Shown: positions 6,945-54,887, counted from the first letter of the stretch. The stretch: DNA of 64,000 bases from Candidatus Magasanikiibacteriota bacterium (GCA_016189025.1 JACPGS010000007.1:1162-65161), one strand, 5' to 3'. The notes: generated by a model from the letters alone, not told the origin. Numbers and translations are program-made.

Positions 6945-7139
6945 GATCTCAAAATTAATAAATAAAATATATGGCTGTGGATAATTTTTTGGCTAACTTG
7001 TGCTATTTATCGTTTATGGAATCAAAATGCAATTGACAAACCTCCTATTTTCTGATAATGTAGAAATACATAAACCTGTATTCCGAACTGTCACCGGACG
7101 GTGGCGTGGCTGGGACATCCAGCATAGGAACGTGGTTGA

Positions 7140-7166
7140 AAAGAGCCCTTCGGGGCTGTTTTTTGT
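7140..7166 (-). terminator. hairpin AGCCC-TTCG-GGGCT with flanking T/A runs, immediately after the DUF3800 gene stop
   Basis: The sequence aaaagagcccttcggggctgttttttg is a tetraloop hairpin with U-tracts on both strands. Confidence 0.5.
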
Positions 7167-7792
7167 TATTTAAACTTCCATTCGTCCTGGATATGATTTT
7201 TAATTATTTTCTTATACACTACAGCGTCGGTCTTGAAATCCTCATACGAACGATGAATACTACCAGCAATCATATCGGCCATTTGAATGAGCACATTCTC
7301 CCTTGAATCCACTAACTTGCAATGCTGCACAATACGTCGCTCATCACTATTTAATTGTGAACGTAGATAACTCACAAAGCTTCTCCGAAAAACACGATCC
7401 CCGCTGCCGTCTACCTTTATCTTCGCATCCAGAATTTTTCCATCACTATATTGCAACACCAACTTAATGGCATAACTATAAAACGACCTCTTATTTGTTC
7501 GCAGCTCCTCACTTCGAATAATAGACTTATCAATAACTAAACTCCGCACCGCAAATGAGAAAGGTAAAATTGTTCTCAAGAATTGTTCGCGGACAGTCTT
7601 GCGTGATTTCGCGAATTTAAACTCTACCGTATCGGGGAAACCCAGTCGGCGCCGCAGTTCCTTGATGGCCACGGCCGCCTTTTCTGCTTCTAGTGGATCG
7701 CGAAAAATAATCAAGGAAATGATAAAGTACCGGCTCGAACCCCGGTCTAGCTTAAATCCCGGATCACCAGAATCATCTATGAATACGAGCAT
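7166..7792 (-). CDS. DUF3800-family protein
   Basis: 208 aa with N-terminal MLVFIDDSGDPGF and later IQMADMIAGSI, resembling DUF3800 signature motifs. Local GC is about 38-40%, versus about 60% in the flanks. Confidence 0.5.
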   Translation of the reverse strand: MLVFIDDSGDPGFKLDRGSSRYFIISLIIFRDPLEAEKAAVAIKELRRRLGFPDTVEFKFAKSRKTVREQFLRTILPFSFAVRSLVIDKSIIRSEELRTNKRSFYSYAIKLVLQYSDGKILDAKIKVDGSGDRVFRRSFVSYLRSQLNSDERRIVQHCKLVDSRENVLIQMADMIAGSIHRSYEDFKTDAVVYKKIIKNHIQDEWKFK

Positions 7793-34478: not shown

Positions 34479-37400
34479 TTAGTAAGTGAGGGTCTTGGAC
34501 TGGAGCGGCAGGTCGGAGCCCATGGCAGTTACGTTCGTAGAGACGCCATCACCCCAGGTAACCTGGCCGCTGCCGATGCGCACCGAGAGACTGGGATTCG
34601 GATTGGTCGTCGTCTTGGTGGCGGCATCGGTGGTGTCCAAGGTGACGTGAATCGCCTTGGAAGCGCCCGAGGAAATCTGAAGATCGGTGAAGTTGGCATC
34701 GGTAATTGAAGAATTGCCATTGGCAGTGGTACCAGTACCAGTGCCTTGAGCAAAGGTCATGGAATATGCATAGTTGGTGGTAGCCAACAGGTTGGCGGTA
34801 GCCACGGAATCTTTGTATACCGTCAGGGCGCGCGTTGCCGCCACTCCCGCCGCCTGCGAGATGGTGGTGCCTAAGTTGAAGTTCATCAGCTGCACCGTGG
34901 CAGTGTGGCCTTCCACGTTCGCCTTGTTGGTAATCGTAAAGATTCCAACGGTCTGCGCGCTGTTCGGCGAGGAAGCGCTGGCGGTGGCGAGGAAGCTGGC
35001 ATCCCAGCCCACGGTGAGCTTGGCGCGGTACAAGGTAGTAGTGGGAGCGTGGGCGCCCAGGCTCAAACCGTATTGATTGGCGTTCGTCAGGAACGAAACG
35101 GTCGGGGAAATCGACACGCCGGATTGCATACCGGTCGCCGTGAACGGCGTAATGCTGCCCACATTGAAGGCCGAAAGAATTACGGGTTCAACGGTCTGGC
35201 CGGTAGTCGCGGCGCCGAGTTCGCCAAAGGTGGTAAAGTCAGCTATCAGCTTAATCTTCTTGGTGGCGCCCTTCGGAATCTCCAGATTAAGACCAGTGAA
35301 GGTGGCGTGCGAATAAGTGGTGGAAGCAGCCGAGGTGCCGGCAACAGAATCGCTGAAAGCAGACACGGTGCCGCCGATCTGGGTGCCGGTAACGTCATCC
35401 ACCAGCTTGACGTTCTTCATGGTGCCGGTGGCGCCGGTGGAGAAGCGCGCGCTTACCACGAATTGGGTAATCTTAATCGGCTCGGTGGTGCTCGCTTGCA
35501 GAGCAAACTTGGCAATGGTCTGATTCAGATCGCCCATCAGGTAGTTGTTGGCTACCGGCGAGTCTGAATCTACCGAGGCCATAAAGCTGCCTGCCGCGGC
35601 AATTTCCACATTCTGGAGCCGGACGGCCTGGCCGGTAAGGCTGGCGCTGGAGCCGGTAGTCTTGCCAGTAGCGGTCACACCGGTGAGGTTCAGGAGAGCC
35701 GTGGCGGAAAGCGTGGAAGACTTCACGTCCGCATACACATCCACCGTGTACTGGGCGCCGTTAGTAATAGTTACTGCCGGCGACACGTTAAAGGTGAAGG
35801 TGTTAACCGTGGAACAGGTGGTGGACGGGTTAGGCAAGGTCTGCCCCAGTTGCGTGCCAGCCGAATTCTTCAGCGTCAGGTTCTGCAGATAGGTGCCGGT
35901 ACAAGTATTGGCAGTGCGGTCGGCCAGGGTTATCTGCGAGACTTCTACATCTTCACCTGCCCCGGCGGTAATGACGAACGAGGCTACTTTGACGCTGCTG
36001 GCATTTACCGTGCCAGTCGGGTTAGCAGAAGATTTATCACCGAACGCTCCATTCATCGCCAGACTTACCGTGCCCGCCCGCACCGTCAGGGTGTTGGCGT
36101 TCTGGTTCACCGTGGTAAGGGAGGTAAGCGAGGTCATGCCCTGGGCATTGTTGCTGGTGCCGACCAGGCCGACCACAAAGGTTTCGCCGGCGACTACGGT
36201 GTCGTTGGTGGTGTCGGCGTCTACCGTTACGGTAACGGTTTTGCCGGCTTTAATCACAAAGCTGCTGCCAAACGATCCCCAGCCGCTGTTGGAGGCGCCG
36301 TTGGCAGTTAAGCTGGAGATGGTGGAGCCCACTTGCGAGCCGTCTATCTTCAGGCGGACATTGGCTAATATGTTGTCTACCGAACCAGCTGAAGTGGAAG
36401 ACACATTCAGGCTGGTGATTTTAACGTTTTCACCATTGGCTTTCCACAGGAATTTAGCCAGGGTAATGGTGGTAGCCGCATCGGCAATGTTGCCGCTCGG
36501 CGAATCGGCGGGCACAGTCTGGGTAAGCGTGCCAACGTTAATGGAGTAATCCACCGCGGTGCTGCCGGTAACGGGCTGAATCACCGTAAAGGTGTCGGTG
36601 CCGTTAGACTTGAGGAAGACGTTATAGCCCTTATCGTAGACCACGAAGTCGCCCGCGTTCTGCAAACTGGCGCGGAAAGTGCGGTTGGTACCGCCAACGA
36701 TGTCCAGCTTGAAGCTTATATTCTTAACCTGGCCCTTAGTTACCAGGTAGGGCGCGGCGCTCAAGTCAAAGGTGATGGATTTGTCCGTCGCCATTTCTGG
36801 TACGGTAGAACCAATCTGCTTGCCGCCTTCCCACAGACTAAAATTGGCGAGGTCGCCGACGCTGACTGAACCGACGATGGTTAAGGTCAGTTTGCGCACT
36901 TCGGTGTCCTGGTCGCCGTTGGTGAGGGAAAACCGCCAGGCCTCAAAGCCCGTGGTACCCGGATCAACTGTGCCGTTCGCCGAAGGAGACTGGGTAGCCA
37001 GCAGCAGGTAACCGAGGTCAGAAACCAGCGCCGTGGTAAAGGTGTTACCCGTTACCGGATAGCTCCCGCCCACCGAGGTGGAATTGGAAACTACCGCCTC
37101 CTTGTTCTCTACCGCAAAGCTAAGGGTCTTGCCGGCAGACGTATTGTTGCGCAGGTCAAGTTTAACCGTTATGCTCTTACTGGAGCCCTTGGCAACGGTA
37201 AAGAGGCCGGCGCTCTTGGTGAAGGTAATATAGCTGTTGGATACGGTCGGGTTGCTGCCGGCCATAATATCTCCGTCGTACAGGTACATATTGCTGATAT
37301 CTGTATCGGCAGAAACGCCACCCCGCTTCAGCTTGACGCTGGTAACTTTCACATCGCCATCGCTGCCGGCGGCAAAGGCCAACTTCATTACCGAAATCAT

Positions 37401-38270
37401 GCCCTGACCACCGGTATTGCCGCTCGTATCCGAGTCGGTAACCACGGTCGCCGCAAACGGAGTGTCCGCCGCGAGCGATACGTTAAGCGCGCCGCCCGGA
37501 GTGGATGTGGCAGTTGTTGGCCCTCCCACGACTACTACCCCACCGCTCTGGGTTTTGTCGGTCCAGGCCTTTACTTCGGCCGAAACCGCTTCACCGGTGG
37601 AAACACCGATAACTGCCGAATCCGGCACGGTGCGGACGTACTTAGAGAGGAAGCCGTTCGCGGTCATGCCGCTCTCGGAAACCTCGCGCAGTTTGCCCTC
37701 GGAATCAACATACCAGGTTTTACCGGCATTCTTGACGAGCATGCCGGGGTGCACCTTGGCCTCGGAAATAGCCGGGCCGCGGTTCACGTAGTTCGGCCAG
37801 TCGCGATCGTCAATAGTGTAAGCCTTGAAGTTGGTGCCGTAGAGCACTTTGGCCGCTTCCATAGTGATGGGCGCTAAGGTGTTACCCGGCTCAAGTACAT
37901 AGAGCTGATCCGAAGCAACGCGCTTCACGACCAAGGTGCCCGGGCGGAAGTTAACTCCCACCGGGAAGCCACTCGGCGCCATCAGGGTGTCAAAACACTC
38001 CTGGGTAACGGTAATATAGCCGCCGTAGTTAAGCCGCCAGGTCTTGAACTGATCGCCGCTCCAGAAATAGAGGTACTTGCCATCATTGTTAATGGCGTAG
38101 ATAGGGGGTTTGCCTTTCACTTTAATCATGTCACCCGCGTTAAGGGTGGGGCAAGCGGCGGCGAGCGCTGCCGAAGGCAGCAAGGCCGAAACGCCTACCG
38201 ACCACATGATGGTGGTGAAAGTTACCCCGATTGAGGTAATTTTCTTAAGCAATTTAAAGATATTGGACAT
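34479..38270 (-). CDS. large Thr/Ser/Gly-rich repeat-domain cell-surface protein (S-layer/adhesin-like; candidate glycoprotein)
   Basis: 1263 aa with an N-terminal signal/TM. Ig-like modules of about 100 aa recur, for example MKLAFAAGSDGDVKVTSVKL, AKFLWKANGENVKITSLNV, VASFVITAGAGEDVEVSQITL and AKFALQASTTEPIKITQFVV. Confidence 0.6.
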   Translation of the reverse strand: MSNIFKLLKKITSIGVTFTTIMWSVGVSALLPSAALAAACPTLNAGDMIKVKGKPPIYAINNDGKYLYFWSGDQFKTWRLNYGGYITVTQECFDTLMAPSGFPVGVNFRPGTLVVKRVASDQLYVLEPGNTLAPITMEAAKVLYGTNFKAYTIDDRDWPNYVNRGPAISEAKVHPGMLVKNAGKTWYVDSEGKLREVSESGMTANGFLSKYVRTVPDSAVIGVSTGEAVSAEVKAWTDKTQSGGVVVVGGPTTATSTPGGALNVSLAADTPFAATVVTDSDTSGNTGGQGMISVMKLAFAAGSDGDVKVTSVKLKRGGVSADTDISNMYLYDGDIMAGSNPTVSNSYITFTKSAGLFTVAKGSSKSITVKLDLRNNTSAGKTLSFAVENKEAVVSNSTSVGGSYPVTGNTFTTALVSDLGYLLLATQSPSANGTVDPGTTGFEAWRFSLTNGDQDTEVRKLTLTIVGSVSVGDLANFSLWEGGKQIGSTVPEMATDKSITFDLSAAPYLVTKGQVKNISFKLDIVGGTNRTFRASLQNAGDFVVYDKGYNVFLKSNGTDTFTVIQPVTGSTAVDYSINVGTLTQTVPADSPSGNIADAATTITLAKFLWKANGENVKITSLNVSSTSAGSVDNILANVRLKIDGSQVGSTISSLTANGASNSGWGSFGSSFVIKAGKTVTVTVDADTTNDTVVAGETFVVGLVGTSNNAQGMTSLTSLTTVNQNANTLTVRAGTVSLAMNGAFGDKSSANPTGTVNASSVKVASFVITAGAGEDVEVSQITLADRTANTCTGTYLQNLTLKNSAGTQLGQTLPNPSTTCSTVNTFTFNVSPAVTITNGAQYTVDVYADVKSSTLSATALLNLTGVTATGKTTGSSASLTGQAVRLQNVEIAAAGSFMASVDSDSPVANNYLMGDLNQTIAKFALQASTTEPIKITQFVVSARFSTGATGTMKNVKLVDDVTGTQIGGTVSAFSDSVAGTSAASTTYSHATFTGLNLEIPKGATKKIKLIADFTTFGELGAATTGQTVEPVILSAFNVGSITPFTATGMQSGVSISPTVSFLTNANQYGLSLGAHAPTTTLYRAKLTVGWDASFLATASASSPNSAQTVGIFTITNKANVEGHTATVQLMNFNLGTTISQAAGVAATRALTVYKDSVATANLLATTNYAYSMTFAQGTGTGTTANGNSSITDANFTDLQISSGASKAIHVTLDTTDAATKTTTNPNPSLSVRIGSGQVTWGDGVSTNVTAMGSDLPLQSKTLTY

Positions 38271-38443: not shown

Positions 38444-39769
38444 CTAACGGCTGACCGGATGGCGGTTGATAGCGGCGCCCGCCCCGCCCCCGACCGGCAA
38501 AGTAGTGGTGGGCAGAGTACTGGACATAGTGGTAACCGGCGCGACCGGCAAGGGCAGCGTAGTGGAAGCGCTGATCGCTTCTTTAACTACTGCTACTGCC
38601 GGCAATACCTCCTGAATCTTGCTGACCGCGGCGTCGCTGATACGCTCCGCCTGGGTGCCGGCGTCGGAAGCTTGCTTAAGCTTATCCACCGCTTGCGCTA
38701 AATCATCTTGCTTTAACCAGCTGGAGGCTTCGGTTACCTGTTTGGTCACTTCGGCCGTAGCAACCTCGTTCTGCAATACCGCTTTAATGGTTTGGTTGGC
38801 GACATCGGTGATTTTGTCTTTTAATTCGGTGGATTTAGTGGTGTCGCCTCCCGCAGTTTTAGTGCTACTTACCAGCTCTTTCGCCTCGCTTTGCGCGGTC
38901 TGCACCATGGTCTTTGCCCCGTCCACGCTCTGCTGGGTTGCCGCGGCGTCTTGCGCCACAGTCCGCAGGGTGGCAGTTAATTCCTGCTTGACCTCCTCTT
39001 TAGAAACACTCCGATCGCCGCCCAGGTGCTTGGCCACCATCGCTTCCGCCGCCTTTACTGCTACGTCCTTAACCAAATTCTTGGTGGTATTCACTTCCTG
39101 CGACAGAGCCTGATCAGCCGTATCGCGGCTAATCAATAAATTCTCTTTCACTTCTTGCAACACGGCCCTAATCTCTTCGGTATTCTGTTTAACATCTTTC
39201 ACGGCCTGGGCCGGCAGACCGTTAACCGGCCGCTGTTTGACCGCTTCCAGTTTATTTTCCACCGTGGTAATTTCACTGGTTAAATCGGCCATCGCTACCC
39301 GCACCTTGTCAGTTTTGGCGGGCGCCGTTTCCGAACGAACCAATTTTTTAGTTTCCACGGCGCGGCGTTTGGCAAATTCCATATGCAAACGGGTGGCCGC
39401 GTCTTTTTTTCCGATAATCGTCGCCACTGCCACCTGGGTTTTTTCCGCGGCGCGCTTCACCGGATAAAGGGCGTCGCCCGGCAGAGTTTCATAGGCCGCA
39501 TCCACCGCGCCGGCGCCGCTCGCCAGCACTGCCACCACTACTAACAGCACCAAAGCCGGGCGCAACACCTGGTACACCAAACTTTCCGGCAGATAATGGG
39601 ACAGGCGCGACCACAGATTTTCTAAAACATTAACCCGCTCCCGGGGCCTGGCCGGCAGCGTATTTTTAATCTGCGACAATAACAGGGCGCGGTTTTGCTG
39701 CACCCATTCCGCCCGGGGACTAGCTTCCCCCTGGCGCAGACGTTTAAGTTGTTCCACTATCTCGCGCAT
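38444..39769 (-). CDS. single-pass membrane protein with extracytoplasmic coiled-coil/Ala-Thr-Lys-rich domain; putative anti-sigma factor
   Basis: Cytoplasmic N-terminus, one TM (LVLLVVVAVLASGAGAV) and a long helical ectodomain. It lies directly downstream of the ECF sigma gene, separated only by a MITE. Confidence 0.35.
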   Translation of the reverse strand: MREIVEQLKRLRQGEASPRAEWVQQNRALLLSQIKNTLPARPRERVNVLENLWSRLSHYLPESLVYQVLRPALVLLVVVAVLASGAGAVDAAYETLPGDALYPVKRAAEKTQVAVATIIGKKDAATRLHMEFAKRRAVETKKLVRSETAPAKTDKVRVAMADLTSEITTVENKLEAVKQRPVNGLPAQAVKDVKQNTEEIRAVLQEVKENLLISRDTADQALSQEVNTTKNLVKDVAVKAAEAMVAKHLGGDRSVSKEEVKQELTATLRTVAQDAAATQQSVDGAKTMVQTAQSEAKELVSSTKTAGGDTTKSTELKDKITDVANQTIKAVLQNEVATAEVTKQVTEASSWLKQDDLAQAVDKLKQASDAGTQAERISDAAVSKIQEVLPAVAVVKEAISASTTLPLPVAPVTTMSSTLPTTTLPVGGGAGAAINRHPVSR

Positions 39770-39990: not shown

Positions 39991-40542
39991 CTAACCTAAT
40001 TTCTGCCGCAACCGTTTCAGCGCCCGGTGAATCATTACTCGCACCGTCAGGCCGCGCTTGCCGGTGATCTCGGCAATTTCCTCAATGCTTAATTCATCAA
40101 TATAGCGCAAGGTTATTACTTCCTGATATTCCTGCTTCAGCTGTTTCAGAGCATTGACGATAACGCCGGCGTCCAACGAAGTATGAAGCTCGGCATACCA
40201 CCGTCCCCCATCGCCCGGTTCAATCGCTTCACGCCGCGCTGCTAATGCTTCAATCTTTTGGCTGCCGGCCCGCTTCCGGTACCAGTCAATAATAGAGTTT
40301 CGCGCAATGCGATAGAGCAGGCCGCTGAAACTTTTGATGGCCTTGCCTTCCTGGAAGTACTGCCAGGCTTTCAAAAATACCTCCGAAGCAATATCTTCGG
40401 CCTCTTCGCGACTGCTCACCTTAAAAAAAACAAAGCGATAAATTTGCTGGATGTATTTATCGTAAAGAGCGGCGTAGGCTTCCGGATCCGCGGCGGTTTT
40501 TACCTGATACAATAGTTCCTGGTCTGAAGGCGTTTTAGACAT
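39991..40542 (-). CDS. ECF-type RNA polymerase sigma factor (sigma-70 regions 2 and 4)
   Basis: YDKYIQQIYRFVFFKV, DIASEVFLKAW, DELSIEEIAEITGKRGLTVRVMIHRALKRLR. Confidence 0.8.
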   Translation of the reverse strand: MSKTPSDQELLYQVKTAADPEAYAALYDKYIQQIYRFVFFKVSSREEAEDIASEVFLKAWQYFQEGKAIKSFSGLLYRIARNSIIDWYRKRAGSQKIEALAARREAIEPGDGGRWYAELHTSLDAGVIVNALKQLKQEYQEVITLRYIDELSIEEIAEITGKRGLTVRVMIHRALKRLRQKLG

Positions 40543-40677
40543 TATAGAAGACGGTTAAAAACAGAAAATGTTACACCCCCTGGTTGCAAAGGATAGCCAC
40601 TATCATAGCAAAATCAGCTGAAAATAGCAACCTTTAAACTACCGACTAGGCTGATTAGCAGGCTTAATAATAGGCCA

Positions 40678-40785
40678 AAATATCAATTTTCTTAAGCGGT
40701 CATCGCGGTCGCCTAAGGCGACCGACCGACCCCGACTAAGTCGGGGGAGGGGGTTTGACCGCGAAAAAATTGATATGTTTTAGCC
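40678..40785 (+). repeat. family-2 repeat, full copy with inverted termini AATATCAATTTT / AAAATTGATATG
   Basis: Nested hairpins GTCGCCTAAGGCGAC and CCCCGACTAAGTCGGGGG. Shares the GACCGC...AATTGATATRTTTTAGCC tail with 56508..56571. Confidence 0.65.
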
Positions 40786-40826
40786 TTATATATAGAGAGC
40801 GTTTTAATTAGCACTATTGATTCACT

Positions 40827-41006
40827 AAAATTTGTATAGACTAGTCTATACAAATTTTATCATTTTTGCCTAAAATTAGCAAAAACTCCTTAAACATTAC
40901 TTTTATATATTTGTATACAACAGTGTATACAAATTATTGATTAAAAATAACCCCTTGACAGCTTAGCCAATTTTTGCTAAAATTTGTATACACTAATGTA
41001 TACAAA
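40827..41006 (+). promoter_or_regulatory. three operator-like palindromes TTTGTATA(C/G)A-N4-T(G/C)TATACAAA plus a consensus sigma-70 promoter (TTGACA 40955..40960, N17, TAAAAT 40978..40983)
   Basis: Palindromes at 40827..40858 (perfect, 32 bp), 40909..40934 and 40981..41006. The last overlaps the -10/+1 region of the downstream HTH gene. Confidence 0.6.
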
Positions 41007-41009
41007 CTT

Positions 41010-41345
41010 ATGGCAATGACGAAAAATACTGAAGAAAAAAAGGAGATTATCCGTGTTTCTATCTCGGAAGCAGCCCGGCTGTTCGGCGTTAACAGCCAAA
41101 CTATCCGGCGCGCCATTAAAAATCAGGAAATTACTTATGTAGTAGTGTCCGGACGGTATAAACTTAATTTTGAAAGCCTGGTGCGCTGGTCGCAAATCCA
41201 TACTACCGTAAAGAACAAACTGGCGCATCGCGGCATTGGCCAGTTTGTGGATAAGTGGAAAATTAAAAATCCGCTGTATTCCCCCAATCCTAAATCAATT
41301 ACTCCAAAGTCTCCCGCCCCGCCAATTACTTCAGGGAACCTTTAA
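41010..41345 (+). CDS. small helix-turn-helix DNA-binding protein (excisionase/MerR-superfamily HTH_17-like)
   Basis: MAMTKNTEEKKEIIRVSISEAARLFGVNSQTIRRAIKN. The start is chosen downstream of the promoter. Context is AT-rich. Confidence 0.5.
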   Translation: MAMTKNTEEKKEIIRVSISEAARLFGVNSQTIRRAIKNQEITYVVVSGRYKLNFESLVRWSQIHTTVKNKLAHRGIGQFVDKWKIKNPLYSPNPKSITPKSPAPPITSGNL

Positions 41346-41400
41346 TCCTCCTCTCACCGGGAGGATTTTAGTTTGACCGCAATACTTAGCCTGCTATAAT

Positions 41401-41590
41401 GAAACTGCAGAAGAATATCAACTATTTCGTTATCTACCTGGTCGCTATCGCTATTGCTGGTAACTGCCTGGTTGGTCGCGGCAGACACTCTTTGGGTGCT
41501 CCTCCCGACTAAAGTCGGGACTGCGCGCCCAAAGATACTCGTCTGCCGCTCCCTAATGCTAACTGGTATTTTTAATTCTTCTACAGCCTC
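41401..41590 (-). mobile_element. MITE-like repeat, family 1, copy F (reverse)
   Basis: AAACTGCAGAAGAAT ... core with apical loop CCCGACTAAAGTCGGGA ... ATTCTTCTACAGCCTC. Confidence 0.85.
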
Positions 41591-41604
41591 ATAATACAAA
41601 AAGT

Positions 41605-46100: not shown

Positions 46101-48902
46101 TTATTCCGCCAGAATGGTCAGAGCGCGGGTGGGGGCCAGACGGAAGAAATTGCCGCGCCGATAAGCGCTGACAATCAGCTTCTCCAGATCATTCACCTTG
46201 AACTGATCAAATTTTTCGCCCCCCGTTTCCAGCACTTTCTTTAACTCCTGCTCAAAGGGGCCGGGAGTTACCAACCCCAGCGCTTCGGCCAATTCATCCA
46301 GTTGTTCGCCCAGCTTCCCCAGTCCTTCTATTAAATCAACATTAACCTCGGCGGTGCGCCGCTTGCCCGCGAGGGTGCGCACTTCTGCCAATTGCTGCTG
46401 CGCTTCGGCGAGCAGGGAACGGACTTCCGATAAATCCTCGCCGGCGCGTTCGCGCGCGGTCAGGCGCCGCGTAAAGCGCGTCAAATCAGCGCTGGCCTTA
46501 TTCAAAAAGCGCTGAACATTGGCAACCGCCCGGATTGCTTCAGCCAGCGACTCGGCCTGACCCAGCTTGTCCAGAACATTCTCTTCCAGATAATCAGCCA
46601 CTTCGCTAACCGGCACGGCGCCGCCCCTTACTTCCCCTAACGCTGCCTTAGCTTCGGCAATTAGGGTAGCCATTTGGCCCAGCTCCTCCACTACTTCCAG
46701 CTTAAAGCGCCGGCTGACTGCCACCGCCTCTTTGCGCGCGGCATCCGCGGTTTGCAGCCGGGCCGACAGCACTTTTACAATCCGCGGCAGGCGCGACAGC
46801 TGCTCCAGCTCGGGCAATAATTCATTTAATTGCGCTGCCACTTCTGGCAACTGTTCGGTGAGGTCTTTTACCTCATCGTAAGTTTTGGCGTTTTTCACCC
46901 GTTTGGCTAAATCCCGCGCCGTGGCAATAACTTCTTTAACCTTGGGGTCCACCGTAATTTTGTCTTTTTCCAATTTTTTAATTTTATTCTCCAGGGTGGT
47001 GAGATAACGCTCAAACTGGCGAATCCCCCGCTGCATATCGCGCAGCGCCCGGCGCTGGAATTCCTGGTCACGGCCGCGTTCATCAATCTCCCCCTCCTTT
47101 TCCAGGGCATCCTGGTAGGCATCGCGCAGCAGCTCTACCTCTTCGCGGAAAACATTCATCGTTTCAAAACTGGTGGAATCTTTAGGAGTGAAGGCACTTA
47201 TTTTATCCTGAAGCGCCGCGATTTTGGCTAACATCGCCTCGTCTTTAACTTTCTTAAAGAATTTCTCCATAGTCTTTAATTCCCGCGCCATCCCCCGCTT
47301 TTCCGAATTAAGCTGGCGCACCTGCTGGCGAGTTAATTCGGTAATAATCGGCTTGGGCTCTGGTTCAGGTTTTGGTTCTGGCTTGGGCTCTGGCGGCGGC
47401 ACTACCTGACTGCAGGTTTGCCCGGGCACGGCGCACCATCCGCTTTTCGCCCCGGTTTTATCGGTGCACCAGGTGCCGCCTTTGTTCAGACAAACGGTAA
47501 TCGGATCTTCGGTCTTGGGACACTGATCAGCGGTTTTAACTACGGTGCCATTGGGGCAGGTATATACGGCCGGGCAATCAGCCGTAGCAGCGACTTTTGA
47601 GCCGTCGGCACAAGTCCTGGTGTCAGGGGTAGCGGACCCTTTCTTGGGACAGCCGGAAAGCCGCGCCGCAAAACTCTTGCCGTCCGGGCAGGTCATTTGC
47701 CCGGAGGGGGGCATGGCCATACAAGGTTCTGCGCTGCACCAGCCAGAGCTAGCAGCAGTAGCCGCGCTGGCGGAAGTACACCAGTTTTTTCCGGCGGCTT
47801 GACAGCTAGACTGCGTGGTAGGCATGGTGGGGCAAGTAGCAGGGGAGGTAACTACTGAATTATCCCAACAGCGCATCTGACCCGATTGGGTGGGGGTATA
47901 GCAAGTTTGGATTCCCATCATGCAGGACCCCCCGTAGCTAGCCCCACCAGTAGCAGCGCACCACTTGCCATAGTATTCCTCGCATTCTGTTTGCGCGCTG
48001 GGCCAGGTATAGGTAGGGGTGGGAGTGGGCGTAGGAGTGGGCGTAGTTGACGGACAGCTTTCCGTTGCCGAGGAGGTGCAATAACCGCTGGAGCCGGACG
48101 CTCCGCCCGAACTGGCGCACCATTTGCGGCTTTTGGCTACGCAGGTGGCTTGGTCATAAATCGGACAAGCTCCCGGCGGCGTGGCGCACCAGCCGCTACT
48201 GCCAGAGCTGCCGCTAGTCGTACCGCCCGAACCGGACGTATAAGCGCACCACTCGCCGCCCTGAGTGGAACAATCTGCCGAGGTATAGGCCGGACAAGGG
48301 CTGCTGCCAGTGGAACAATAACCGGACACGCCATCGGAATTCTTGCACCATTTACCCCCGGAACTGGTACAAGTAGTTTGAGCATCAGAAACCGGACACT
48401 GCTGCCCGGTAGCAGCGCACCAATCCGAGCCGCCGCTGGTGCCGCTGCACCACTGCCGGCCTTTGGCTTCGCAGGTGGCTTTGTCGTTCACTGGGCAGCT
48501 GCTGCCGGAGCCGCTGGCGCACCAGCCGGTGGCGCCGCTCATTCCCGGGCACCACTCTCCCCCCTGGGCGCTGCAGCTCGCCGAATCATAAGCCGGACAA
48601 GAACCGGTGCTGTACGAGCAATAGGAGGACCCGCTGGAGCTGGGGCACCATTTATATCCCTGGCTGGTGCAGGTGGTTTGGGGATCGGTGGTGGTACCAG
48701 TTCCCGAGGTGCCGGTACCGGAAGTGCCACCGGAAGTGCCGGAAGTGCCGGTATAAGTACCGGTGCCGGAAGAGCCAGTGCCGCTGTCAGTAGTTTGGGC
48801 TACGGCATAACCTACTAAAATAGTAGCGCCGGCTAGCATAATCAGCGTGGGGCCGATTAACAATAGCCAGCGCCAATGCCGGGGAGTGGTAGTGGATTGC
48901 AT
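46101..48902 (-). CDS. secreted/membrane-anchored Cys-rich repeat protein with a C-terminal long coiled-coil domain
   Basis: 933 aa. A Gly/Thr/Ser-rich region is followed by at least 7 repeats of W-C-x5-15-G-(W/Y)-C-x4-8-C-P, for example QGGEWCPGMSGATGWCASGSGSSCP. Then come a PEPKPEPKPEPEPKP linker and about 400 aa of helix. Confidence 0.55.
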   Translation of the reverse strand: MQSTTTPRHWRWLLLIGPTLIMLAGATILVGYAVAQTTDSGTGSSGTGTYTGTSGTSGGTSGTGTSGTGTTTDPQTTCTSQGYKWCPSSSGSSYCSYSTGSCPAYDSASCSAQGGEWCPGMSGATGWCASGSGSSCPVNDKATCEAKGRQWCSGTSGGSDWCAATGQQCPVSDAQTTCTSSGGKWCKNSDGVSGYCSTGSSPCPAYTSADCSTQGGEWCAYTSGSGGTTSGSSGSSGWCATPPGACPIYDQATCVAKSRKWCASSGGASGSSGYCTSSATESCPSTTPTPTPTPTPTYTWPSAQTECEEYYGKWCAATGGASYGGSCMMGIQTCYTPTQSGQMRCWDNSVVTSPATCPTMPTTQSSCQAAGKNWCTSASAATAASSGWCSAEPCMAMPPSGQMTCPDGKSFAARLSGCPKKGSATPDTRTCADGSKVAATADCPAVYTCPNGTVVKTADQCPKTEDPITVCLNKGGTWCTDKTGAKSGWCAVPGQTCSQVVPPPEPKPEPKPEPEPKPIITELTRQQVRQLNSEKRGMARELKTMEKFFKKVKDEAMLAKIAALQDKISAFTPKDSTSFETMNVFREEVELLRDAYQDALEKEGEIDERGRDQEFQRRALRDMQRGIRQFERYLTTLENKIKKLEKDKITVDPKVKEVIATARDLAKRVKNAKTYDEVKDLTEQLPEVAAQLNELLPELEQLSRLPRIVKVLSARLQTADAARKEAVAVSRRFKLEVVEELGQMATLIAEAKAALGEVRGGAVPVSEVADYLEENVLDKLGQAESLAEAIRAVANVQRFLNKASADLTRFTRRLTARERAGEDLSEVRSLLAEAQQQLAEVRTLAGKRRTAEVNVDLIEGLGKLGEQLDELAEALGLVTPGPFEQELKKVLETGGEKFDQFKVNDLEKLIVSAYRRGNFFRLAPTRALTILAE

Positions 48903-48962
48903 AGAGCTTCCTCCTAAAAATAAATAAAATTAATACGAATTAAATTTTCGCTTCCGGAGAAT

Positions 48963-48991
48963 ATTATAGCATATCCTAACCCAAGTGATAA
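48963..48991 (-). promoter_or_regulatory. sigma-70-like promoter (TTATCA-N17-TATAAT) with AGGAGG Shine-Dalgarno, for the Cys-rich protein gene
   Basis: On the minus strand the sequence reads ttatcacttgggttaggatatgctataat...ttaggaggaagctctATG. Confidence 0.55.
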
Positions 48992-48996
48992 ATAAA

Positions 48997-49025
48997 AACA
49001 CGCCCCGTCAAGGGGGCGTGTGGAT
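48997..49025 (-). terminator. rho-independent terminator after the DsbA-like gene
   Basis: CACGCCCC-gtcaa-GGGGCGTG, followed on the minus strand by tttttattt. Confidence 0.6.
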
Positions 49026-49045
49026 AACCTGATTTACTGCTTGCT

Positions 49046-49885
49046 TTACCTTAACTTAGCCTCCACCGCTGCTTTAAGCTGCTCATACGAAACCGCGCCG
49101 GAAATCAACTGGGCATTGCCGTTGGCGTCCACCAAAAATGACCCGGGCGTGCCCTGCACCCCCGCCGCGGCCCCGGCATTCAGCTGCTCGCGCACTGGAG
49201 TGGCATATTTGCCAGAATCCAGGCAGGCCTTAAACCTGCTTTCGCTTAACCCTAATTCCCGCGCTAAAGGTGCCAGGGCATCCAGGGCAAAACCAGTGCC
49301 ATTGGCAGTGGTACGTTCAAAAATTTTATCTACATATCGCCAAAAAGCGTCGTTGCCACCCAGTTCGGCCGCGCACTCCGAGGCTTCAGCTTCTTTTTGG
49401 GCATTAGCATGGAACGATAAAGGATAATGCCGATACACCCACTTTACCTTACCGTCGTACTCCTGCAACAAGCGCTGCACCGTGGAGTGGAAACGCTGGC
49501 AGAATGGGCATTCCAGGTCCGAATATTCAATTAAAGTGAGCCGGGCGTTGCGGCTGCCGCGCACATGGTCGCTGGCAGCTAAAGGAGGCACCGGGCCGGT
49601 GGGTAGCTCCGGGGGAGCGGCAACGCCTGCCCCTCCTAGGGCCTGACCCGTGGGAGCATTACCAGCCAAACTATCGGACGCGCCCAGGCTAAACTGAGCA
49701 TTACCGCGCAGCATCAGCCCTAATAAAACAAAAAAACCGATGGTGCAGAGCACCAGAATGCCGCCGACTACGCCAACGAGGAGCGCCTGCTTGGGCGACA
49801 GCGCATTGAAAACCGACTGACCCGCCGGCGGGCGTTCCGGCGCGTCAAAATCCGGATCGTGAGGGAGAGGAGACATAAAGTTCAA
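49046..49885 (-). CDS. DsbA-family thiol:disulfide oxidoreductase (thioredoxin fold, CPFC active site), membrane-anchored
   Basis: YSDLECPFCQRFH, N-terminal TM (LLVGVVGGILVLCTIGFFVLLGL). Confidence 0.7.
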   Translation of the reverse strand: MNFMSPLPHDPDFDAPERPPAGQSVFNALSPKQALLVGVVGGILVLCTIGFFVLLGLMLRGNAQFSLGASDSLAGNAPTGQALGGAGVAAPPELPTGPVPPLAASDHVRGSRNARLTLIEYSDLECPFCQRFHSTVQRLLQEYDGKVKWVYRHYPLSFHANAQKEAEASECAAELGGNDAFWRYVDKIFERTTANGTGFALDALAPLARELGLSESRFKACLDSGKYATPVREQLNAGAAAGVQGTPGSFLVDANGNAQLISGAVSYEQLKAAVEAKLR

Positions 49886-50044: not shown

Positions 50045-52369
50045 CTAACGTTCCGGGGCCAGGCGGCGCAGGCGCAAACTGTTGCCGACCACGCTGACGC
50101 TGGAAAAAGCCATCGCCGCCGCGGCAATCAGCGGATTCAACAAACCAAAAGCGGCGAGCGGCAGAGCCGCGGCATTATAGAAAAAAGCCCAGAATAAATT
50201 CTGCTTAATGATGCGGAAGGTGGCGCGCGACAGGATAATCGCTTCTACTGCTTTCAAGGGACTCCCCTTGACCAAAACAATACTGCCGGCTTCAATGGCA
50301 ATGTCCGTGCCGGTGCCGAGCGCTACCCCAAGATCTGCCTGGGTCAGAGCCGGCGCATCGTTAATGCCGTCGCCGACAAAGGCCACCCGCTGGCCTTTGG
50401 CCTGTAACTGCTGCACTTGCCGGGCTTTATCGGCCGGTAATACCTCGGCGAGGATAGTTTTGAACCCTAGCGCCTCGCCCACGGCGCGCGCCGTGCGCGC
50501 ATTGTCGCCGGTCATTAAAATCGGCTCCACTCCCATTCCCTTGAGTTTGGCTACGGCTTCTCCCGCATCAGACTTAGGAGTATCCGCCACCGCAATCAAA
50601 CCCATGAGCTCGGCCGGCTGGCCGGCAGATTGCTGAATTTGCTGATTGCTTACGGCTAACATCATTACGGTCTTACCTTTAGTTTCCAGAGCCTGAATTT
50701 GCGCTTCCGCCGCGGCGTCTAAAGTAACTCCGCGTTCGGCTAATAATGCCCGCGTGCCAATCAGCACCGCGCGCCTAGCCTCGCCCCCCTGCACTTCGGC
50801 GGTTACCCCTTTACCCGGTACGGCCTGGAAGGTGGCTACCGGCAGTAGTTTAACTTTATCCGCCGTACCGCGCTCCACTATGGCGCGCGCCAAAGGGTGC
50901 TCGGAATGAGCTTCTACGGATGCTGCTAATTGCAACAAAAGCTGGCGGCTGATTGCTGAATCTGCTGATTGCTGAATCTGCTGATTGCTAACAACTACAT
51001 CGGTCACCCGCGGCTTGCCTTCGGTGAGCGTGCCGGTTTTGTCAAACACCACCGCATCAATCCGTTTGGCTTTTTCCAGCGCTTCGCCGTTTTTAATGAG
51101 AATCCCCCGCCGCGCCCCCAGCCCGGTGCCGACCATAATGGCAGTGGGAGTAGCTAACCCCAGGGCGCAGGGGCAGGCAATTACCAGCACCGCTACCGCC
51201 GGAATCAGGCTGGCAGTAACGTCGCCCGTCTTCAGCCCCCAGGCCACCGCGGTAACCGCGGCAATCACCAGCACCACCGGCACAAAAATGCCGGAAATTT
51301 TATCTGCTAATTTTTGAATGGGCGCTTTCTTTTCCTGGGCTTCGGCCACCAGTTTTACAATCTGGGCCAAAACCGTATTCTCTCCTACCTTAGTGGCGGC
51401 AATTACCAGCGACCCATTGGTATTAATAGTAGCGCCGTATACTAAATCGCCTGCTTGCTTATCTGCGGGAATGGACTCGCCGGTCAGCATCGATTCGTCC
51501 AGCGCCGCCGCGCCCCGGATAATTTTGCCGTCGGTGGGAATTTTTTCGCCTGGTTTCACCATCAGCCAATCTCCTACGCTGATTGCTTCAATCGGCACTT
51601 CTTCGGTTTCCCCGGTCTCGTCGGATGCTGCTTTTTCCTTAATCCGCCGCGCAGTTTTGGCTCCTAACGCCAATAATTTAGCAATCGCCGCGCTGGCCGC
51701 GCCGGTACTTCTAGCTTCAAAAAATTTACCGAGCAGAATTAAAGCGGTAATGATAGCGCCGATTTCAAAATAAAGATTGGGGTGTTGGGTTGCCATCGCC
51801 CACACACTATAACCAAGTGCGGCAAGTGTTCCTAACGAAATCAGGGTATCCATCCCCGGCGCCAGATGGCGCACTTCGCGGGTCATGCCGCGGTGAAACT
51901 GCTGCCCGACGTAAAGAATAACAATCGCCGCCAGCGCCGCCGAGAGCCATAAAGAAAGCGGATAACCATAAAGCAATTGCCCAAATTCCCAGCCGGACAT
52001 GCCGATAATGGCAGCGGGAGTGGCTAAAACCAGCGCCACGACGGCCCGGCGTTTGGCAACGCCGACTTCGGCCTGCAGATGAGCGGTGTGATCAACCGGG
52101 GCCGCGCTATCCGGCCCGGCGGCGTGATGACCGGCATGAGCGGGGGCAGCAGTAGGCGCCGGAGCAGCCACCTCGTATCCCTCGCCGCGCACGGCCTGAT
52201 GCAAGGCGTGTTCGTCGGCTTTAGTTTCATCGTAAGTAACCGTCGCGGTCTTGAACGCAAAATTAACACTGGCATCGCTCACCCCCGGCACCTTTTTCAG
52301 GGCTCCTTCGTTGCGCGCCACGCACGAAGCGCAGTGCATGCCCTGAATGCCAAAAGTAATTTTTTTCAT
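50045..52369 (-). CDS. copA: copper-translocating P1B-type ATPase
   Basis: N-terminal HMA (GMHCASC), CPC (ACPCALGLATP), DKTGTLT, GDGINDAP. The probable start is MKKITFGIQGM at 52369. The longer track ORF reads through a MITE. Confidence 0.9.
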   Translation of the reverse strand: MKKITFGIQGMHCASCVARNEGALKKVPGVSDASVNFAFKTATVTYDETKADEHALHQAVRGEGYEVAAPAPTAAPAHAGHHAAGPDSAAPVDHTAHLQAEVGVAKRRAVVALVLATPAAIIGMSGWEFGQLLYGYPLSLWLSAALAAIVILYVGQQFHRGMTREVRHLAPGMDTLISLGTLAALGYSVWAMATQHPNLYFEIGAIITALILLGKFFEARSTGAASAAIAKLLALGAKTARRIKEKAASDETGETEEVPIEAISVGDWLMVKPGEKIPTDGKIIRGAAALDESMLTGESIPADKQAGDLVYGATINTNGSLVIAATKVGENTVLAQIVKLVAEAQEKKAPIQKLADKISGIFVPVVLVIAAVTAVAWGLKTGDVTASLIPAVAVLVIACPCALGLATPTAIMVGTGLGARRGILIKNGEALEKAKRIDAVVFDKTGTLTEGKPRVTDVVVSNQQIQQSADSAISRQLLLQLAASVEAHSEHPLARAIVERGTADKVKLLPVATFQAVPGKGVTAEVQGGEARRAVLIGTRALLAERGVTLDAAAEAQIQALETKGKTVMMLAVSNQQIQQSAGQPAELMGLIAVADTPKSDAGEAVAKLKGMGVEPILMTGDNARTARAVGEALGFKTILAEVLPADKARQVQQLQAKGQRVAFVGDGINDAPALTQADLGVALGTGTDIAIEAGSIVLVKGSPLKAVEAIILSRATFRIIKQNLFWAFFYNAAALPLAAFGLLNPLIAAAAMAFSSVSVVGNSLRLRRLAPER

Positions 52370-52382
52370 ATCCAGATTGAGG

Positions 52383-52556
52383 TTGTTGAAGAATATGACA
52401 TTGTTATCCGCCTGGTCGCTGTCGCTATTGCTAAAATTTACTTGGTTGGTCGCGGCAGACACTCTTTGGGTGCTCCCCCGATTTAATCGGGGTGCGCACC
52501 CAAAGACACTCGTCTGCCGCTCCCTGATGCTAACTGATTATTCCTATTCTTCTAGA
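52383..52556 (-). mobile_element. MITE-like repeat, family 1, copy H (reverse)
   Basis: GTTGAAGAAT ... core with loop CCCGATTTAATCGGGG ... ATTCTTCTAG. Confidence 0.85.
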
Positions 52557-52727: not shown

Positions 52728-54368
52728 CTATGAACTGCTCTTCGGCAGCACCGTAAAACTCCCCTGCACCATGCCCATGCTGCAGCTAAAGGCAATGCGG
52801 CCCTGGCGGGGCGGGGTAAATTCAATCAGATTCGGGCCGCGCGTTAAATAGCGCTGGATATTTAATTCGCGGGAGACCAATACCGAGGTGCAGCCCGCGG
52901 CCCGGGTACCGTCCACTTCCCAGCGCACTGGCGTGCCCTGGCGCACCACAAAATTAGCCGGCGTAAATCCGGTCGGCTCCACGCTCATTTTAATTACCTG
53001 CTTGCCGCTAATAATTTTTCCGCTTAATTCCTGCGCCTCCGCGTTAGCGCTGCCCACCGGCAACAGATGCGCCAGCGGGTAACCGGCGATATTAAAGGCA
53101 TTCTGAAAATTCCACAGGCCTAAAATTACCACCAAAGCGCCGGAAAATTGCACAAACCACCGCCCAGCCCGGCCTTTCAAACCGCTGGAAGCAAACCCCA
53201 AAATCAGCAAAGCCGGCGCCGTGCCCAGGGCAAAGGCCAACAGTACCGTGGCCGCGGCGGTAAAACTGCCGGTAGTTAAGGCATAGAGTTGCAGCGCCTG
53301 GGTAAAGCCGCAGGGAATAAAGAAAGTGGCGGCGCCCAAAGCAAACGGCGTGCCCCAATGATTTTTCCCTTCTACTGCCAATAGCCGATGGGAAATGCTT
53401 TTGGGCATCCGGGGCAACAGTTCGCGGAGCCACACCGGCGCCCAGCCCAGCATTTCTAACCCCATCATAAACATATAGAGCGCGGCGAGCAGGGTGATGA
53501 ACGCGGTAACCAAGGGAGAGGGAACCAGAACGCGCCCGACTACTCCCAAGAGCCCGCCCAGTAAGGCGTAGCTCGCCACCCGCCCGGCGACAAACAACAA
53601 AACCGGAGTAAAGCGCCCCGACCACCCGGCCCCGGCATATCGTTCGTTAAATTTAGCCGCCGCCGAAAGCAGCAGGCCGCCGGTAACCGCAATGCAGGAA
53701 GAGCTGGCCGCGACCAGCCCCACCAAAAATACCGCGCCAAAAGTCATTGTGGAGCCAGTGCCAAAGTTTGACTGCCACAGACCCAGGCGCGACAATAATG
53801 TATACAATAGAAAGATTAAGGCCGTGAGCCCCAGAAATCTGATGAATGATACCCGGTGCGCCGGCTGACTACGGGGCGCCGGAGCAGACGAAACCGAACG
53901 ATTAGCCGCGACGGAACGCACCCGATAATGAGTAGCGCCGAGCGCTTGCGCCAAATTTTGCTGAAGTAAATTAGTGTCGGCCGGAGTGCCGGGCGCCAGC
54001 GTCAGGTGCGCTACCCCGCGCCCCGCATTAACCTCTACTTTAGCCACGCCGGGGAGCTTCCCCCAGGCGCGCTCAATCGTTACTTCGCAGCTGCGGCAGG
54101 TCATGCCGTCGATCGCTACCGTCAGGGCGCGCGGGCTCGCCACCGCCTCGGCTGCTACTGCCGCGGCCTGCCAGCCGGCTTGGCGCAACGCTTCGCTCAC
54201 TGTCGCTGCCGTCAAATTAGCGTGGCCGATTACCCGCACCAAAGATTTAGCGACGTTAACATCTACCTGCCTGACGCCGGCTAAATGAATTAAACGCTCA
54301 CGCAACCGCTCGCCAGCGCCGGATTCCAGCGCCGGCTGCAGAGAAAATTTATAGGCTACTGGTTCCAT
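52728..54368 (-). CDS. HMA-domain membrane protein (two HMA domains + TauE/SafE- or DsbD_2-like permease + C-terminal cupredoxin-like domain); copper homeostasis
   Basis: GMTCRSCEVTIE (HMA), about 7 TM segments with Gly-rich helices, and a C-terminal beta-rich domain ending in SCSMGM. Confidence 0.5.
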   Translation of the reverse strand: MEPVAYKFSLQPALESGAGERLRERLIHLAGVRQVDVNVAKSLVRVIGHANLTAATVSEALRQAGWQAAAVAAEAVASPRALTVAIDGMTCRSCEVTIERAWGKLPGVAKVEVNAGRGVAHLTLAPGTPADTNLLQQNLAQALGATHYRVRSVAANRSVSSAPAPRSQPAHRVSFIRFLGLTALIFLLYTLLSRLGLWQSNFGTGSTMTFGAVFLVGLVAASSSCIAVTGGLLLSAAAKFNERYAGAGWSGRFTPVLLFVAGRVASYALLGGLLGVVGRVLVPSPLVTAFITLLAALYMFMMGLEMLGWAPVWLRELLPRMPKSISHRLLAVEGKNHWGTPFALGAATFFIPCGFTQALQLYALTTGSFTAAATVLLAFALGTAPALLILGFASSGLKGRAGRWFVQFSGALVVILGLWNFQNAFNIAGYPLAHLLPVGSANAEAQELSGKIISGKQVIKMSVEPTGFTPANFVVRQGTPVRWEVDGTRAAGCTSVLVSRELNIQRYLTRGPNLIEFTPPRQGRIAFSCSMGMVQGSFTVLPKSSS

Positions 54369-54398: not shown

Positions 54399-54428
54399 TT
54401 GACAAATAACCGCCCCCGTGTTAGAATC
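54399..54428 (+). promoter_or_regulatory. consensus sigma-70 promoter TTGACA-N17-TAGAAT
   Basis: cttgacaaataaccgcccccgtgttagaatcattatcATG. The ATG is at 54435. Confidence 0.6.
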
Positions 54429-54434
54429 ATTATC

Positions 54435-54887
54435 ATGAACAAACCCTCAAGAAAAAGAGTCTCTGGGCTACTGGCCGGCGGCCTGATTATTTTAGTAGCG
54501 CTGATTTATGTTTGTTCCCCTGGCCTGACCGGAATGAGCGCAATGATAACGGGCAGCCATGCCTCCCCCTGCCAAAATTACTCGGGGGATGCCTCCCTTA
54601 ATAATGCTATGAGCATGGTGAATTGTCTTAATGCTCATCTGCCCGCGGCCGGCGCGATTGCCCAAGACTTTACTACGGCGGCAGCGCTGCTGCTGTTGCT
54701 GGTTTCGGCGGCCATCGGTTATTGGCTGAAACGGGATATTTTATCATCCTGGTTCCGCTCCGCTTTAACGCGCGGCCAATATTGGTACCGTCGCTATCGC
54801 CTGGCCATCAAATCGCTCTGGGAAAGAAAATTATTGCGCTTCCTGAATCTTTTGGGTAATTACACGGCAGTCGCTTTGGCAGTATAG
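54435..54887 (+). CDS. hypothetical membrane protein (2 TM, Cys-containing loop)
   Basis: MNKPSRKRVSGLLAGGLIILVALIYV...HASPCQ...VNCLNAH... Confidence 0.4.
   Translation: MNKPSRKRVSGLLAGGLIILVALIYVCSPGLTGMSAMITGSHASPCQNYSGDASLNNAMSMVNCLNAHLPAAGAIAQDFTTAAALLLLLVSAAIGYWLKRDILSSWFRSALTRGQYWYRRYRLAIKSLWERKLLRFLNLLGNYTAVALAV

Follow-up and report, generated by a model that had tools for sequence, protein, structure and literature searches.

A lineage-restricted family of cysteine-rich, probably exported envelope proteins with an all-helical C-terminal domain in Magasanikbacteria and related Patescibacteria

The 64,000-nucleotide stretch of Candidatus Magasanikiibacteriota bacterium analysed here (GCA_016189025.1 JACPGS010000007.1:1162-65161; the window) carries on its minus strand a gene for a cysteine-rich protein of 933 amino acids (aa). 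We propose, with a probability of roughly 0.6, that this protein is a Sec-exported, heavily disulfide-bonded envelope or surface protein belonging to a small family of Magasanikbacteria and related Patescibacteria. It is built from a repeated four-Cys mini-domain and a 415-residue helical domain, both of which are previously undescribed. The 933-aa open reading frame (ORF) reported in the initial annotation of this DNA is present at 46101-48902, and its product is identical in sequence to the NCBI entry 'MAG: hypothetical protein HYV42_01290 [Candidatus Magasanikbacteria bacterium]' (MAG, metagenome-assembled genome). The gene and its product comprise the following features, all on the minus strand:

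48963-48991, minus: promoter-like site, TTATCA and TATAAT 17 nt apart, with TG ahead of the latter (extended -10)
48910-48915, minus: Shine-Dalgarno sequence AGGAGG, 7 nt 5' of the ATG at 48902
46101-48902, minus: gene of the Cys-rich protein, 933 aa, stop codon included (ORF call)
48795-48902, minus: predicted signal peptide, aa 1-36, ending in AVA before QT (hydropathy and homologue comparison)
48687-48794, minus: low-complexity tract rich in G, T and S, aa 37-72, with micro-tandem repeats of 9 and 12 nt
48045-48677, minus: six tandem four-Cys modules, aa 76-286, of three subtypes ordered (C-A-B)x2
48012-48044, minus: Thr-Pro linker TPTPTPTPTPT, aa 287-297
47403-48011, minus: second Cys-rich half, aa 298-500, collinear throughout the family
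within the second half, minus: three further four-Cys modules, aa 305-337, 365-397 and 469-500
within the second half, minus: four two-Cys 'C[PAW][DN]G...CP' ('CPDG') hairpins, aa 343-360, 403-421, 429-446 and 447-464
47349-47402, minus: Pro-rich EP/KP spacer VPPPEPKPEPKPEPEPKP, aa 501-518
46104-47348, minus: Cys-free all-alpha domain, aa 519-933 (415 aa)

All 44 Cys residues of the protein lie within aa 73-500 and are accounted for by nine four-Cys modules and four two-Cys hairpins (9x4 + 4x2). The repeat unit, C-x7-[W]C-x8..19-[WY]C-x4..7-C and mostly with Pro after it, is present in nine copies that share 30-73% pairwise identity. A strict WC...[WY]C...CP pattern occurs eight times in aa 73-500, whereas 5000 composition-preserving shuffles gave 0.05 on average and never more than 2, and 14 of the 16 Trp residues of the Cys-rich region directly precede a Cys. 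The repeat described in the initial annotation is thus real, but there are nine modules with four Cys each rather than seven or more with three; the lower Cys count arose because the Cys located eight residues ahead of the first WC had been missed. The repetitiveness also reported for the underlying DNA turned out to be weak. It contains only short repeats of 18-42 nt that are 62-85% identical and whose spacings are all multiples of 3, and micro-tandems are confined to the G/T/S and TP tracts.

The N-terminus of the protein has the properties of a Sec signal peptide: a basic n-region (R8/R11), an h-region at aa 11-35, an A-x-A site and no second transmembrane segment in the remainder of the chain. 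Residues 11-35 are the sole hydrophobic segment, the Kyte-Doolittle maximum elsewhere being 0.85, and the A-x-A site followed by Q-T recurs in homologues. We infer from this that the protein is exported by the Sec pathway and that its signal peptide is cleaved between AVA and QT. The C-terminus is not hydrophobic. The tract that follows the signal peptide (T 42%, G 33%, S 19%; 94% combined) corresponds to the Gly/Thr/Ser-rich leader noted earlier and is absent from homologues. The spacer previously described as rigid is also there, at aa 501-518; its sequence differs among homologues.

Several observations suggest that the Cys residues of the protein are disulfide-bonded. The Cys columns are invariant over 30 family members, and 25 of these 30 have an even number of Cys residues (binomial p = 1.6e-4, kinship ignored), a parity argument that follows the logic of published surveys of bacterial disulfide capacity. 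CxxC, CxC and CC motifs are absent from all 933 aa, as are His-rich sites. Together with the signal peptide, the even parity, the invariant columns and the lack of metal motifs led us to this assignment. A metallothionein-like or Zn-ribbon-type metal-binding protein was considered and rejected, given the lack of metal motifs and the even Cys parity.

We then modelled the Cys-rich region (aa 72-500) with AlphaFold2 from an alignment of 14 sequences. The mean predicted local distance difference test score (pLDDT) was 72, with values of ~75-87 in the modules, and the predicted template modelling score (pTM) was 0.30. In every modelled module the first Cys (C1) lies in a short helix, C2 and C3 sit one on each strand of a two-stranded hairpin, and C4 lies in a coil. 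Each hairpin strand ends in WC or YC. The strand register of the model suggests that C2 and C3 are on opposite faces of the hairpin, so that each would be bonded to either C1 or C4, with one Trp packed on either face.

The C-terminal domain (aa 519-933) was modelled as a monomer from 16 sequences (mean pLDDT 81, pTM 0.52). It is predicted to consist of 14 helices of 8-55 residues connected by short loops, with a disordered stretch ahead of a conserved C-terminal helix that carries the motif A-Y-R-x-x-x-F-F-R. The model predicts an all-alpha bundle type of domain rather than a single continuous coiled coil. The ~400-aa coiled coil proposed initially agrees with the model in length and helical content (415 aa, all alpha), but the 14 helices are predicted to form bundles instead. 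The domain is free of Cys in 16 of 16 members and contains no hydrophobic segment (19-residue Kyte-Doolittle maximum 0.85). Generic coiled-coil families matched it only below the Pfam threshold, and a search for internal repeats returned a single weak segment pair (hhalign, 90% probability over 32 columns).

Neither part of the protein could be assigned to a known family. Searches of the whole 933-aa protein against Pfam and NCBIfam gave only sub-threshold coiled-coil and Pro-rich noise. No Pfam family matched any of 14 family ectodomains, even at E<=10, and the helical domains produced scattered sub-threshold matches with no family found in more than 6 of 16 members. PDB sequence searches with a whole-family profile and with a double-module profile were negative. 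Foldseek comparison to the PDB was not significant for the model of the Cys-rich region (best E=4.5) or for that of the helical domain (best E=0.13, TM-score ~0.1). EGF-like repeats, chitin-binding domains and other described Cys-rich repeats were not detected with curated profiles or among solved folds by Foldseek, and we found no description of the family in the literature on Patescibacteria or Magasanikbacteria that deals with cysteine-rich, disulfide or surface proteins. The initial view that the repeat is novel is thus borne out for Pfam, NCBIfam, PDB sequences and PDB folds.

The family is small. We found 37 homologue clusters of the 933-aa protein at 30-44% identity, none of them named and none with a Pfam domain, and the double-module profile recovered only 36 clusters from 1.84 billion representative proteins. 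Among species-representative genomes there were 18 loci, and informative titles were Magasanikbacteria, 'Patescibacteria group' or Parcubacteria. In a local hmmsearch nearly all full-length matches of the module profile also had the helical domain; matches lacking it were fragments, low-complexity false matches and one 1542-aa protein. Members carry 5-12 Cys modules. The helical domain is also found behind fn3, Big_3_5, ChitinaseA_N and Pur_ac_phosph_N modules; members with other modules or none of the Cys type include P0040, P0031, P0043 and P0058, one of them without Cys modules. Because the N-terminal modules differ in kind and number, the helical domain is the constant, family-defining part. 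Two features of the sampling bear on these counts. Loci were retrieved with the Cys-rich alignment, which biases them towards members that have Cys modules, and a helical-domain profile run against a set of 5.8 billion proteins returned only P0039 and P0040, probably as low-complexity helical words swamped the candidates.

Two MAG-level observations concern the family itself. Several MAGs titled 'uncultured Gammaproteobacteria bacterium' (loci L010, L011, L013, L015 and L024-L026) encode a clearly CPR-type member (CPR, candidate phyla radiation), and this organism name was probably assigned by default or in error. Two contigs of a single MAG, CAYHWE01, encode one member each (L024 and L026), so paralogues can coexist within a genome.

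Neighbouring genes at other family loci recur in two forms. Wzy_C proteins, of the O-antigen-ligase or O-oligosaccharyltransferase type, lie near family members in six loci (L001, L002, L005, L007, L011 and L021), and do so in three arrangements: directly upstream, directly downstream or after a NUDIX gene. This recurrence may reflect glycosylation of the S/T-rich family protein or a common envelope function. In five genomes of one clade, a divergent gene for an SLT_2 lytic-transglycosylase-like protein of ~440-452 aa lies directly upstream of the member; its SLT_2 domain scores 29.6 bits (cutoff 24.3) and its N-terminal region is coiled-coil-like. Taken together, the Wzy_C and SLT_2 neighbours suggest a link to wall glycans or to protein O-glycosylation. 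The SLT_2 genes are:

L001, 4559-5881: SLT_2 gene
L002, 4572-5930: SLT_2 gene
L007, 4246-5589: SLT_2 gene
L015, 2423-3733: SLT_2 gene
L021, 4268-5590: SLT_2 gene

From these data we propose the following arrangement. The mature N-terminal ectodomain would comprise nine ~30-residue four-Cys mini-domains and four two-Cys hairpins, held by up to 22 disulfides. The conserved Trp residues beside the Cys probably pack on the disulfides and so would replace a hydrophobic core, and the string of mini-domains could form a stiff 'beads-on-a-string' rod. The Pro-rich EP/KP spacer would join this ectodomain to the helical-bundle domain, for which self-assembly or attachment at the envelope seems most likely, while the Cys-rich rod may project outward as a structural or adhesive element. 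Oxidative folding could be carried out by general DsbA/VKOR machinery, VKOR-paired DsbA genes being known in related genomes. Polarity, with the helical domain proximal and the Cys-rich rod distal, and an adhesive role are both tentative.

An envelope location is further favoured by the strong promoter and Shine-Dalgarno sequence and by the Wzy_C (six loci) and SLT_2-like (five loci) neighbours elsewhere. The initial annotation had suggested an envelope or adhesion fibre. An exported, disulfide-rich envelope protein fits the signal peptide, the Cys parity and the relatives with fn3 or Ig-like modules, whereas the adhesive role is conjectural. Several points weigh against the proposal. The protein has no LPXTG motif, lipobox, second transmembrane segment, or SLH or Gram_pos_anchor Pfam match, and no homologue of known function was found among family members. 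The proposed polarity is argued from the contrast between a constant and a variable part. The models derive from shallow alignments (14-16 sequences; pTM 0.30 and 0.52), and the arrangement between modules in them is unreliable.

The promoter-like site at 48991-48963 matches the consensus at 10 of 12 positions, and with AGGAGG 7 nt ahead of the ATG it agrees with the strong promoter and Shine-Dalgarno sequence described initially. The order of genes on the minus strand is HMA-DsbD_2-cupredoxin protein, CopA-type ATPase, DsbA-like protein, the 933-aa gene, an amino-acid-permease-like gene and MetK. The permease-like gene starts 28 nt past the end of the Cys-rich gene, with no terminator found in the gap; the two genes may therefore be co-transcribed. 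The permease-like gene is not conserved as a neighbour at other family loci. Features flanking the Cys-rich gene are:

52728-54368, minus: membrane protein with HMA, DsbD_2 and cupredoxin domains, heading a conserved three-gene block
50045-52462, minus: HMA-domain P-type (CopA-like) ATPase, conserved partner 5' of the DsbA-like gene
49046-49885, minus: membrane-anchored thioredoxin-fold protein of the DsbA/BdbD/ScsC type, 279 aa
48998-49021, minus: hairpin resembling an intrinsic terminator (stem of 9 bp with 7 GC pairs, and a T-run), immediately past the DsbA-like stop codon
44870-46072, minus: amino-acid-permease-like gene

We next consider the DsbA-like neighbour, which had been proposed as the dedicated oxidative-folding partner of the Cys-rich protein. 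Its identity is clear. The protein has a CPFC site at aa 126-129 and a transmembrane segment at ~aa 33-58, and it matches the Thioredoxin_4/DSBA profiles PF13462 with 88 bits (cutoff 23.2) and PF01323 with 68.9 bits, consistent with the membrane-anchored DsbA-like protein described initially. Its relatives among PDB sequences include 4n30, BdbD (3eu3), DsbA (4pwp) and ScsC (4gxz/6nen/6mhh); actinobacterial DsbA and the copper-resistance ScsC ('suppressor of copper sensitivity') proteins are among those with solved structures. The gene had been described as following the Cys-rich gene, but both are on the minus strand and it lies upstream (5'). The terminator ascribed to it is present at 49021-48998. 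Because this terminator and the promoter of the Cys-rich gene both fall between the two genes, they probably belong to separate transcription units.

Comparison with other genomes places the DsbA-like gene in a different context. Of 22 distinct family loci, only the window has an adjacent DsbA gene. In two others (L002 and L021) a DsbA of another paralogue type, paired with VKOR, is encoded on the opposite strand at a distance of 3.5-4.5 kb, and in a further one (L008) a DsbA gene is found ~5.6 kb upstream of the family member. Homologues of the DsbA-like protein fall into more than 3,648 clusters at E<=1e-20, spread across the CPR, compared with a few dozen for the Cys-rich protein. The block HMA-DsbD_2-cupredoxin > CopA > DsbA is found in the same order and on the same strand in L027 (1212-5765) and L028 (734-5837), with identities to the proteins of the window of 38-50%, 44-45% and 62-64% in gene order. 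The two closest DsbA orthologues examined (64% and 62%) thus lie in the CopA block, with no homologue of the Cys-rich protein within 5 kb. In a third orthologue context (L029) the DsbA gene follows a CDF transporter gene, with DsbB nearby. The DsbA-like gene closes a conserved copper/thiol-redox block, and the data do not support it as a dedicated partner of the Cys-rich gene; on the combined evidence of transcription signals, family synteny, DsbA abundance and the synteny of DsbA itself, their adjacency looks incidental. The presence of this block alongside a second, VKOR-paired DsbA paralogue suggests a division between thiol repair under copper stress and general oxidation.

This bears on two explanations that connect the Cys-rich protein to its neighbours. 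A dedicated substrate/oxidase pair is suggested by the adjacency of the genes on the same strand, by the up to 22 disulfides that the Cys-rich protein would need and by the CPFC site and membrane anchor of the DsbA-like protein. We regard it as very unlikely in view of the intervening terminator and promoter, the lack of an adjacent DsbA gene at ~21 other loci (three have one at 3.5-5.6 kb), the disparity in abundance and the occurrence of DsbA orthologues (62-64%) in a CopA block without the Cys-rich gene. That the ectodomain instead binds or sequesters copper outside the cytoplasm, serving the adjacent CopA / HMA-DsbD_2-cupredoxin / DsbA cluster, would make use of the 44 Cys residues and of the closeness to a copper-export and thiol-redox cluster, and at one further locus (L021) a fragment of CopA is encoded ~5.5 kb upstream of the family member. 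Yet copper-binding motifs of the CxxC, CxC, CC or His-rich kind are missing, the four-Cys spacing is fixed and parity even family-wide, and the Cys residues lie inside the predicted beta-hairpins and helices of the mini-domains. Moreover, the block is kept without the Cys-rich gene and the Cys-rich gene is mostly found without the block, which leaves copper binding very improbable.

Other explanations accept export but differ on function. The four-Cys modules might be lectin-like binders of carbohydrate or peptidoglycan, similar in function to hevein/CBM18, that anchor the cell either to its own or to a host's wall. The Cys residues have conserved aromatic neighbours (WC, [WY]C), the G-W-C of the modules is reminiscent of the hevein motif S-x-x-G-W-C-G, and the modules are multivalent and tandem; lytic-transglycosylase-like and Wzy_C neighbours recur, and one family member has a ChitinaseA_N module. 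Many CPR bacteria are, in addition, thought to be host-associated or episymbiotic (PMC9166423), which would suit such a role. Alignment of 253 modules with hevein-type domains (hhalign) nevertheless gave a probability of 2%, Pfam Chitin_bind_1 was undetected at E<=10, no WGA or hevein appeared in the PDB profile search, and the Trp residues may merely pack on disulfides. We consider lectin-like binding possible but doubtful. A more specific form of this idea, in which the four-Cys unit would be a new CPR-restricted glycan- or peptidoglycan-binding fold, displayed in multiple copies on a helical stalk or base, perhaps O-glycosylated by Wzy_C, and used by these ultrasmall bacteria for attachment to a host wall or for organising their own unusual envelope, seems rather unlikely as a whole. 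An abundant, purely structural lattice or stalk protein of the surface-layer (S-layer) type, oligomerising through the helical domain, would account for the strong promoter and perfect Shine-Dalgarno sequence, for secretion and for a constant helical domain with variable outer modules, and CPR cells have S-layers of unknown composition. S-layer proteins are typically Cys-poor, however, the family is rare (a few dozen clusters) rather than universal in the lineage, no SLH or other known anchoring domain is present, and the window encodes a better candidate, a 1263-aa protein with 4 Cys; we judge this role to be improbable also. Finally, SmhB, AhlB and ClyA were the top-ranked PDB matches of the helical domain in Foldseek, which would make the protein a host-directed effector resembling alpha-pore-forming toxins. 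These matches were not significant (E=0.13-0.5, TM-scores 0.09-0.17), the domain lacks a hydrophobic head or tongue (hydropathy maximum 0.85) and Pfam yields only scattered sub-threshold coiled-coil noise. We therefore rejected a pore-forming toxin, on the non-significant matches and the lack of a hydrophobic segment, as most improbable. The preferred reading remains that of a Sec-exported, disulfide-bonded envelope or surface protein.

The rest of the window contains several further features. The 1263-aa protein is encoded on the minus strand at 34479-38270; it is secreted, beta-rich and S/T-rich, has no Pfam match, and resembles a conventional S-layer or large surface protein more than the Cys-rich protein does. 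Near it on the same strand are genes for an extracytoplasmic function (ECF)-type sigma factor (39991-40542) and then for a DUF5667-like protein (38444-39769, sub-threshold), which may form a sigma/anti-sigma pair next to the gene for the large surface protein. Kinship of the helical domain with this DUF5667-like protein was tested and rejected (hhalign, 0.2% probability). A long run of minus-strand genes at 1-34086 is probably an envelope-polysaccharide cluster, since it encodes a Wzy_C+TPR protein (31843-34086) and has ORFs with N-termini resembling glycosyltransferases and sugar epimerases or dehydratases. On the plus strand, a small ORF at 54399-54887 has a weak match to the LPXTG cell-wall anchor (E=5.6e-4), which hints that the organism uses sortase anchoring, while the Cys-rich protein carries no such signal. 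An Rfam DUF3800-IX RNA motif was found at 7073-7141 on the plus strand (54.4 bits, gathering score 36.8), adjoining a minus-strand ORF (7166-7792) whose N-terminus, MLVFIDDSGDPGF..., is DUF3800-like in look. GC content dips to 0.43 at 22-24 kb and to 0.45 at 40-42 kb, the second dip spanning ~1 kb without an ORF (40543-41604).

CPR bacteria (Patescibacteria) account for a large part of bacterial diversity, and their surface proteins are almost uncharacterised even though they are needed for a host-dependent life. The family described here supplies two domains without detectable relatives in Pfam, NCBIfam or the PDB, a ~30-residue two-disulfide mini-domain and a 415-residue helical domain, and offers a concrete candidate, highly expressed by its appearance, for studies of envelope and attachment and for structure determination. 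It also suggests that CPR organisms invest in extensive extracytoplasmic disulfide chemistry. For annotation, the membership of the DsbA-like gene in a conserved copper-ATPase/DsbD-type block means that it should not be recorded as the folding partner of the Cys-rich protein.

The DsbA-like neighbour is of a known kind. Like ScsC, BdbD and actinobacterial DsbA it has a Thioredoxin_4/DSBA domain with a CxxC (CPFC) site, and like the scs genes it lies alongside copper-handling and DsbD-type genes. It differs in having an N-terminal transmembrane anchor, and no equivalents of ScsA or ScsD were identified.

For the Cys-rich protein we noted four likenesses. The EP/KP composition of aa 501-518 recalls the (Glu-Pro)n(Lys-Pro)m spacer of TonB, whose EP/KP segments are regarded as extended and rigid, and an NCBIfam TonB match was limited to this spacer (E=0.008, far below the cutoff). 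The spacer is only 18 residues long, its sequence is not conserved in homologues, and the protein has no TonB C-terminal domain. With hevein/CBM18 proteins (Chitin_bind_1, WGA arrays) the modules share a size of ~30-40 residues, a fold held by disulfides without a real hydrophobic core, the G-[WY]-C motif, aromatics beside Cys and a tandem arrangement in secreted proteins. Hevein (PF00187), however, has eight Cys per 30-43 aa including a CC doublet, whereas the module has four and no CC. Membership was rejected, as hhalign gave 2% over 14 columns (253 modules against 10 domains) and Pfam and PDB searches were negative; the resemblance is one of motif and possibly of way of working, a functional analogy and not family membership. 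An extracellular string of small disulfide-knotted repeats is also typical of EGF-like, LDL-receptor class A and follistatin/TNFR-type rods, and LRP2, VLDLR and follistatin were the sole PDB fold matches of the Cys-rich region, all of them non-significant (best E=4.5). Those eukaryotic repeats have six Cys; the module has four with a spacing of its own, no Pfam match and a bacterial (CPR) origin. In overall layout the protein compares with the modular surface proteins of Gram-positive bacteria, which likewise combine a signal peptide and variable small modules with a Pro-rich spacer and a C-terminal region that is conserved, and some family members use fn3 or Ig-like modules as these do. It departs from them in lacking an LPXTG/sortase signal, SLH domain or lipobox and in having as its conserved C-terminus a helical domain without known relatives. 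The family is thus lineage-restricted and uncharacterised, and its architecture is of a familiar class, that of modular, disulfide-braced secreted surface proteins.

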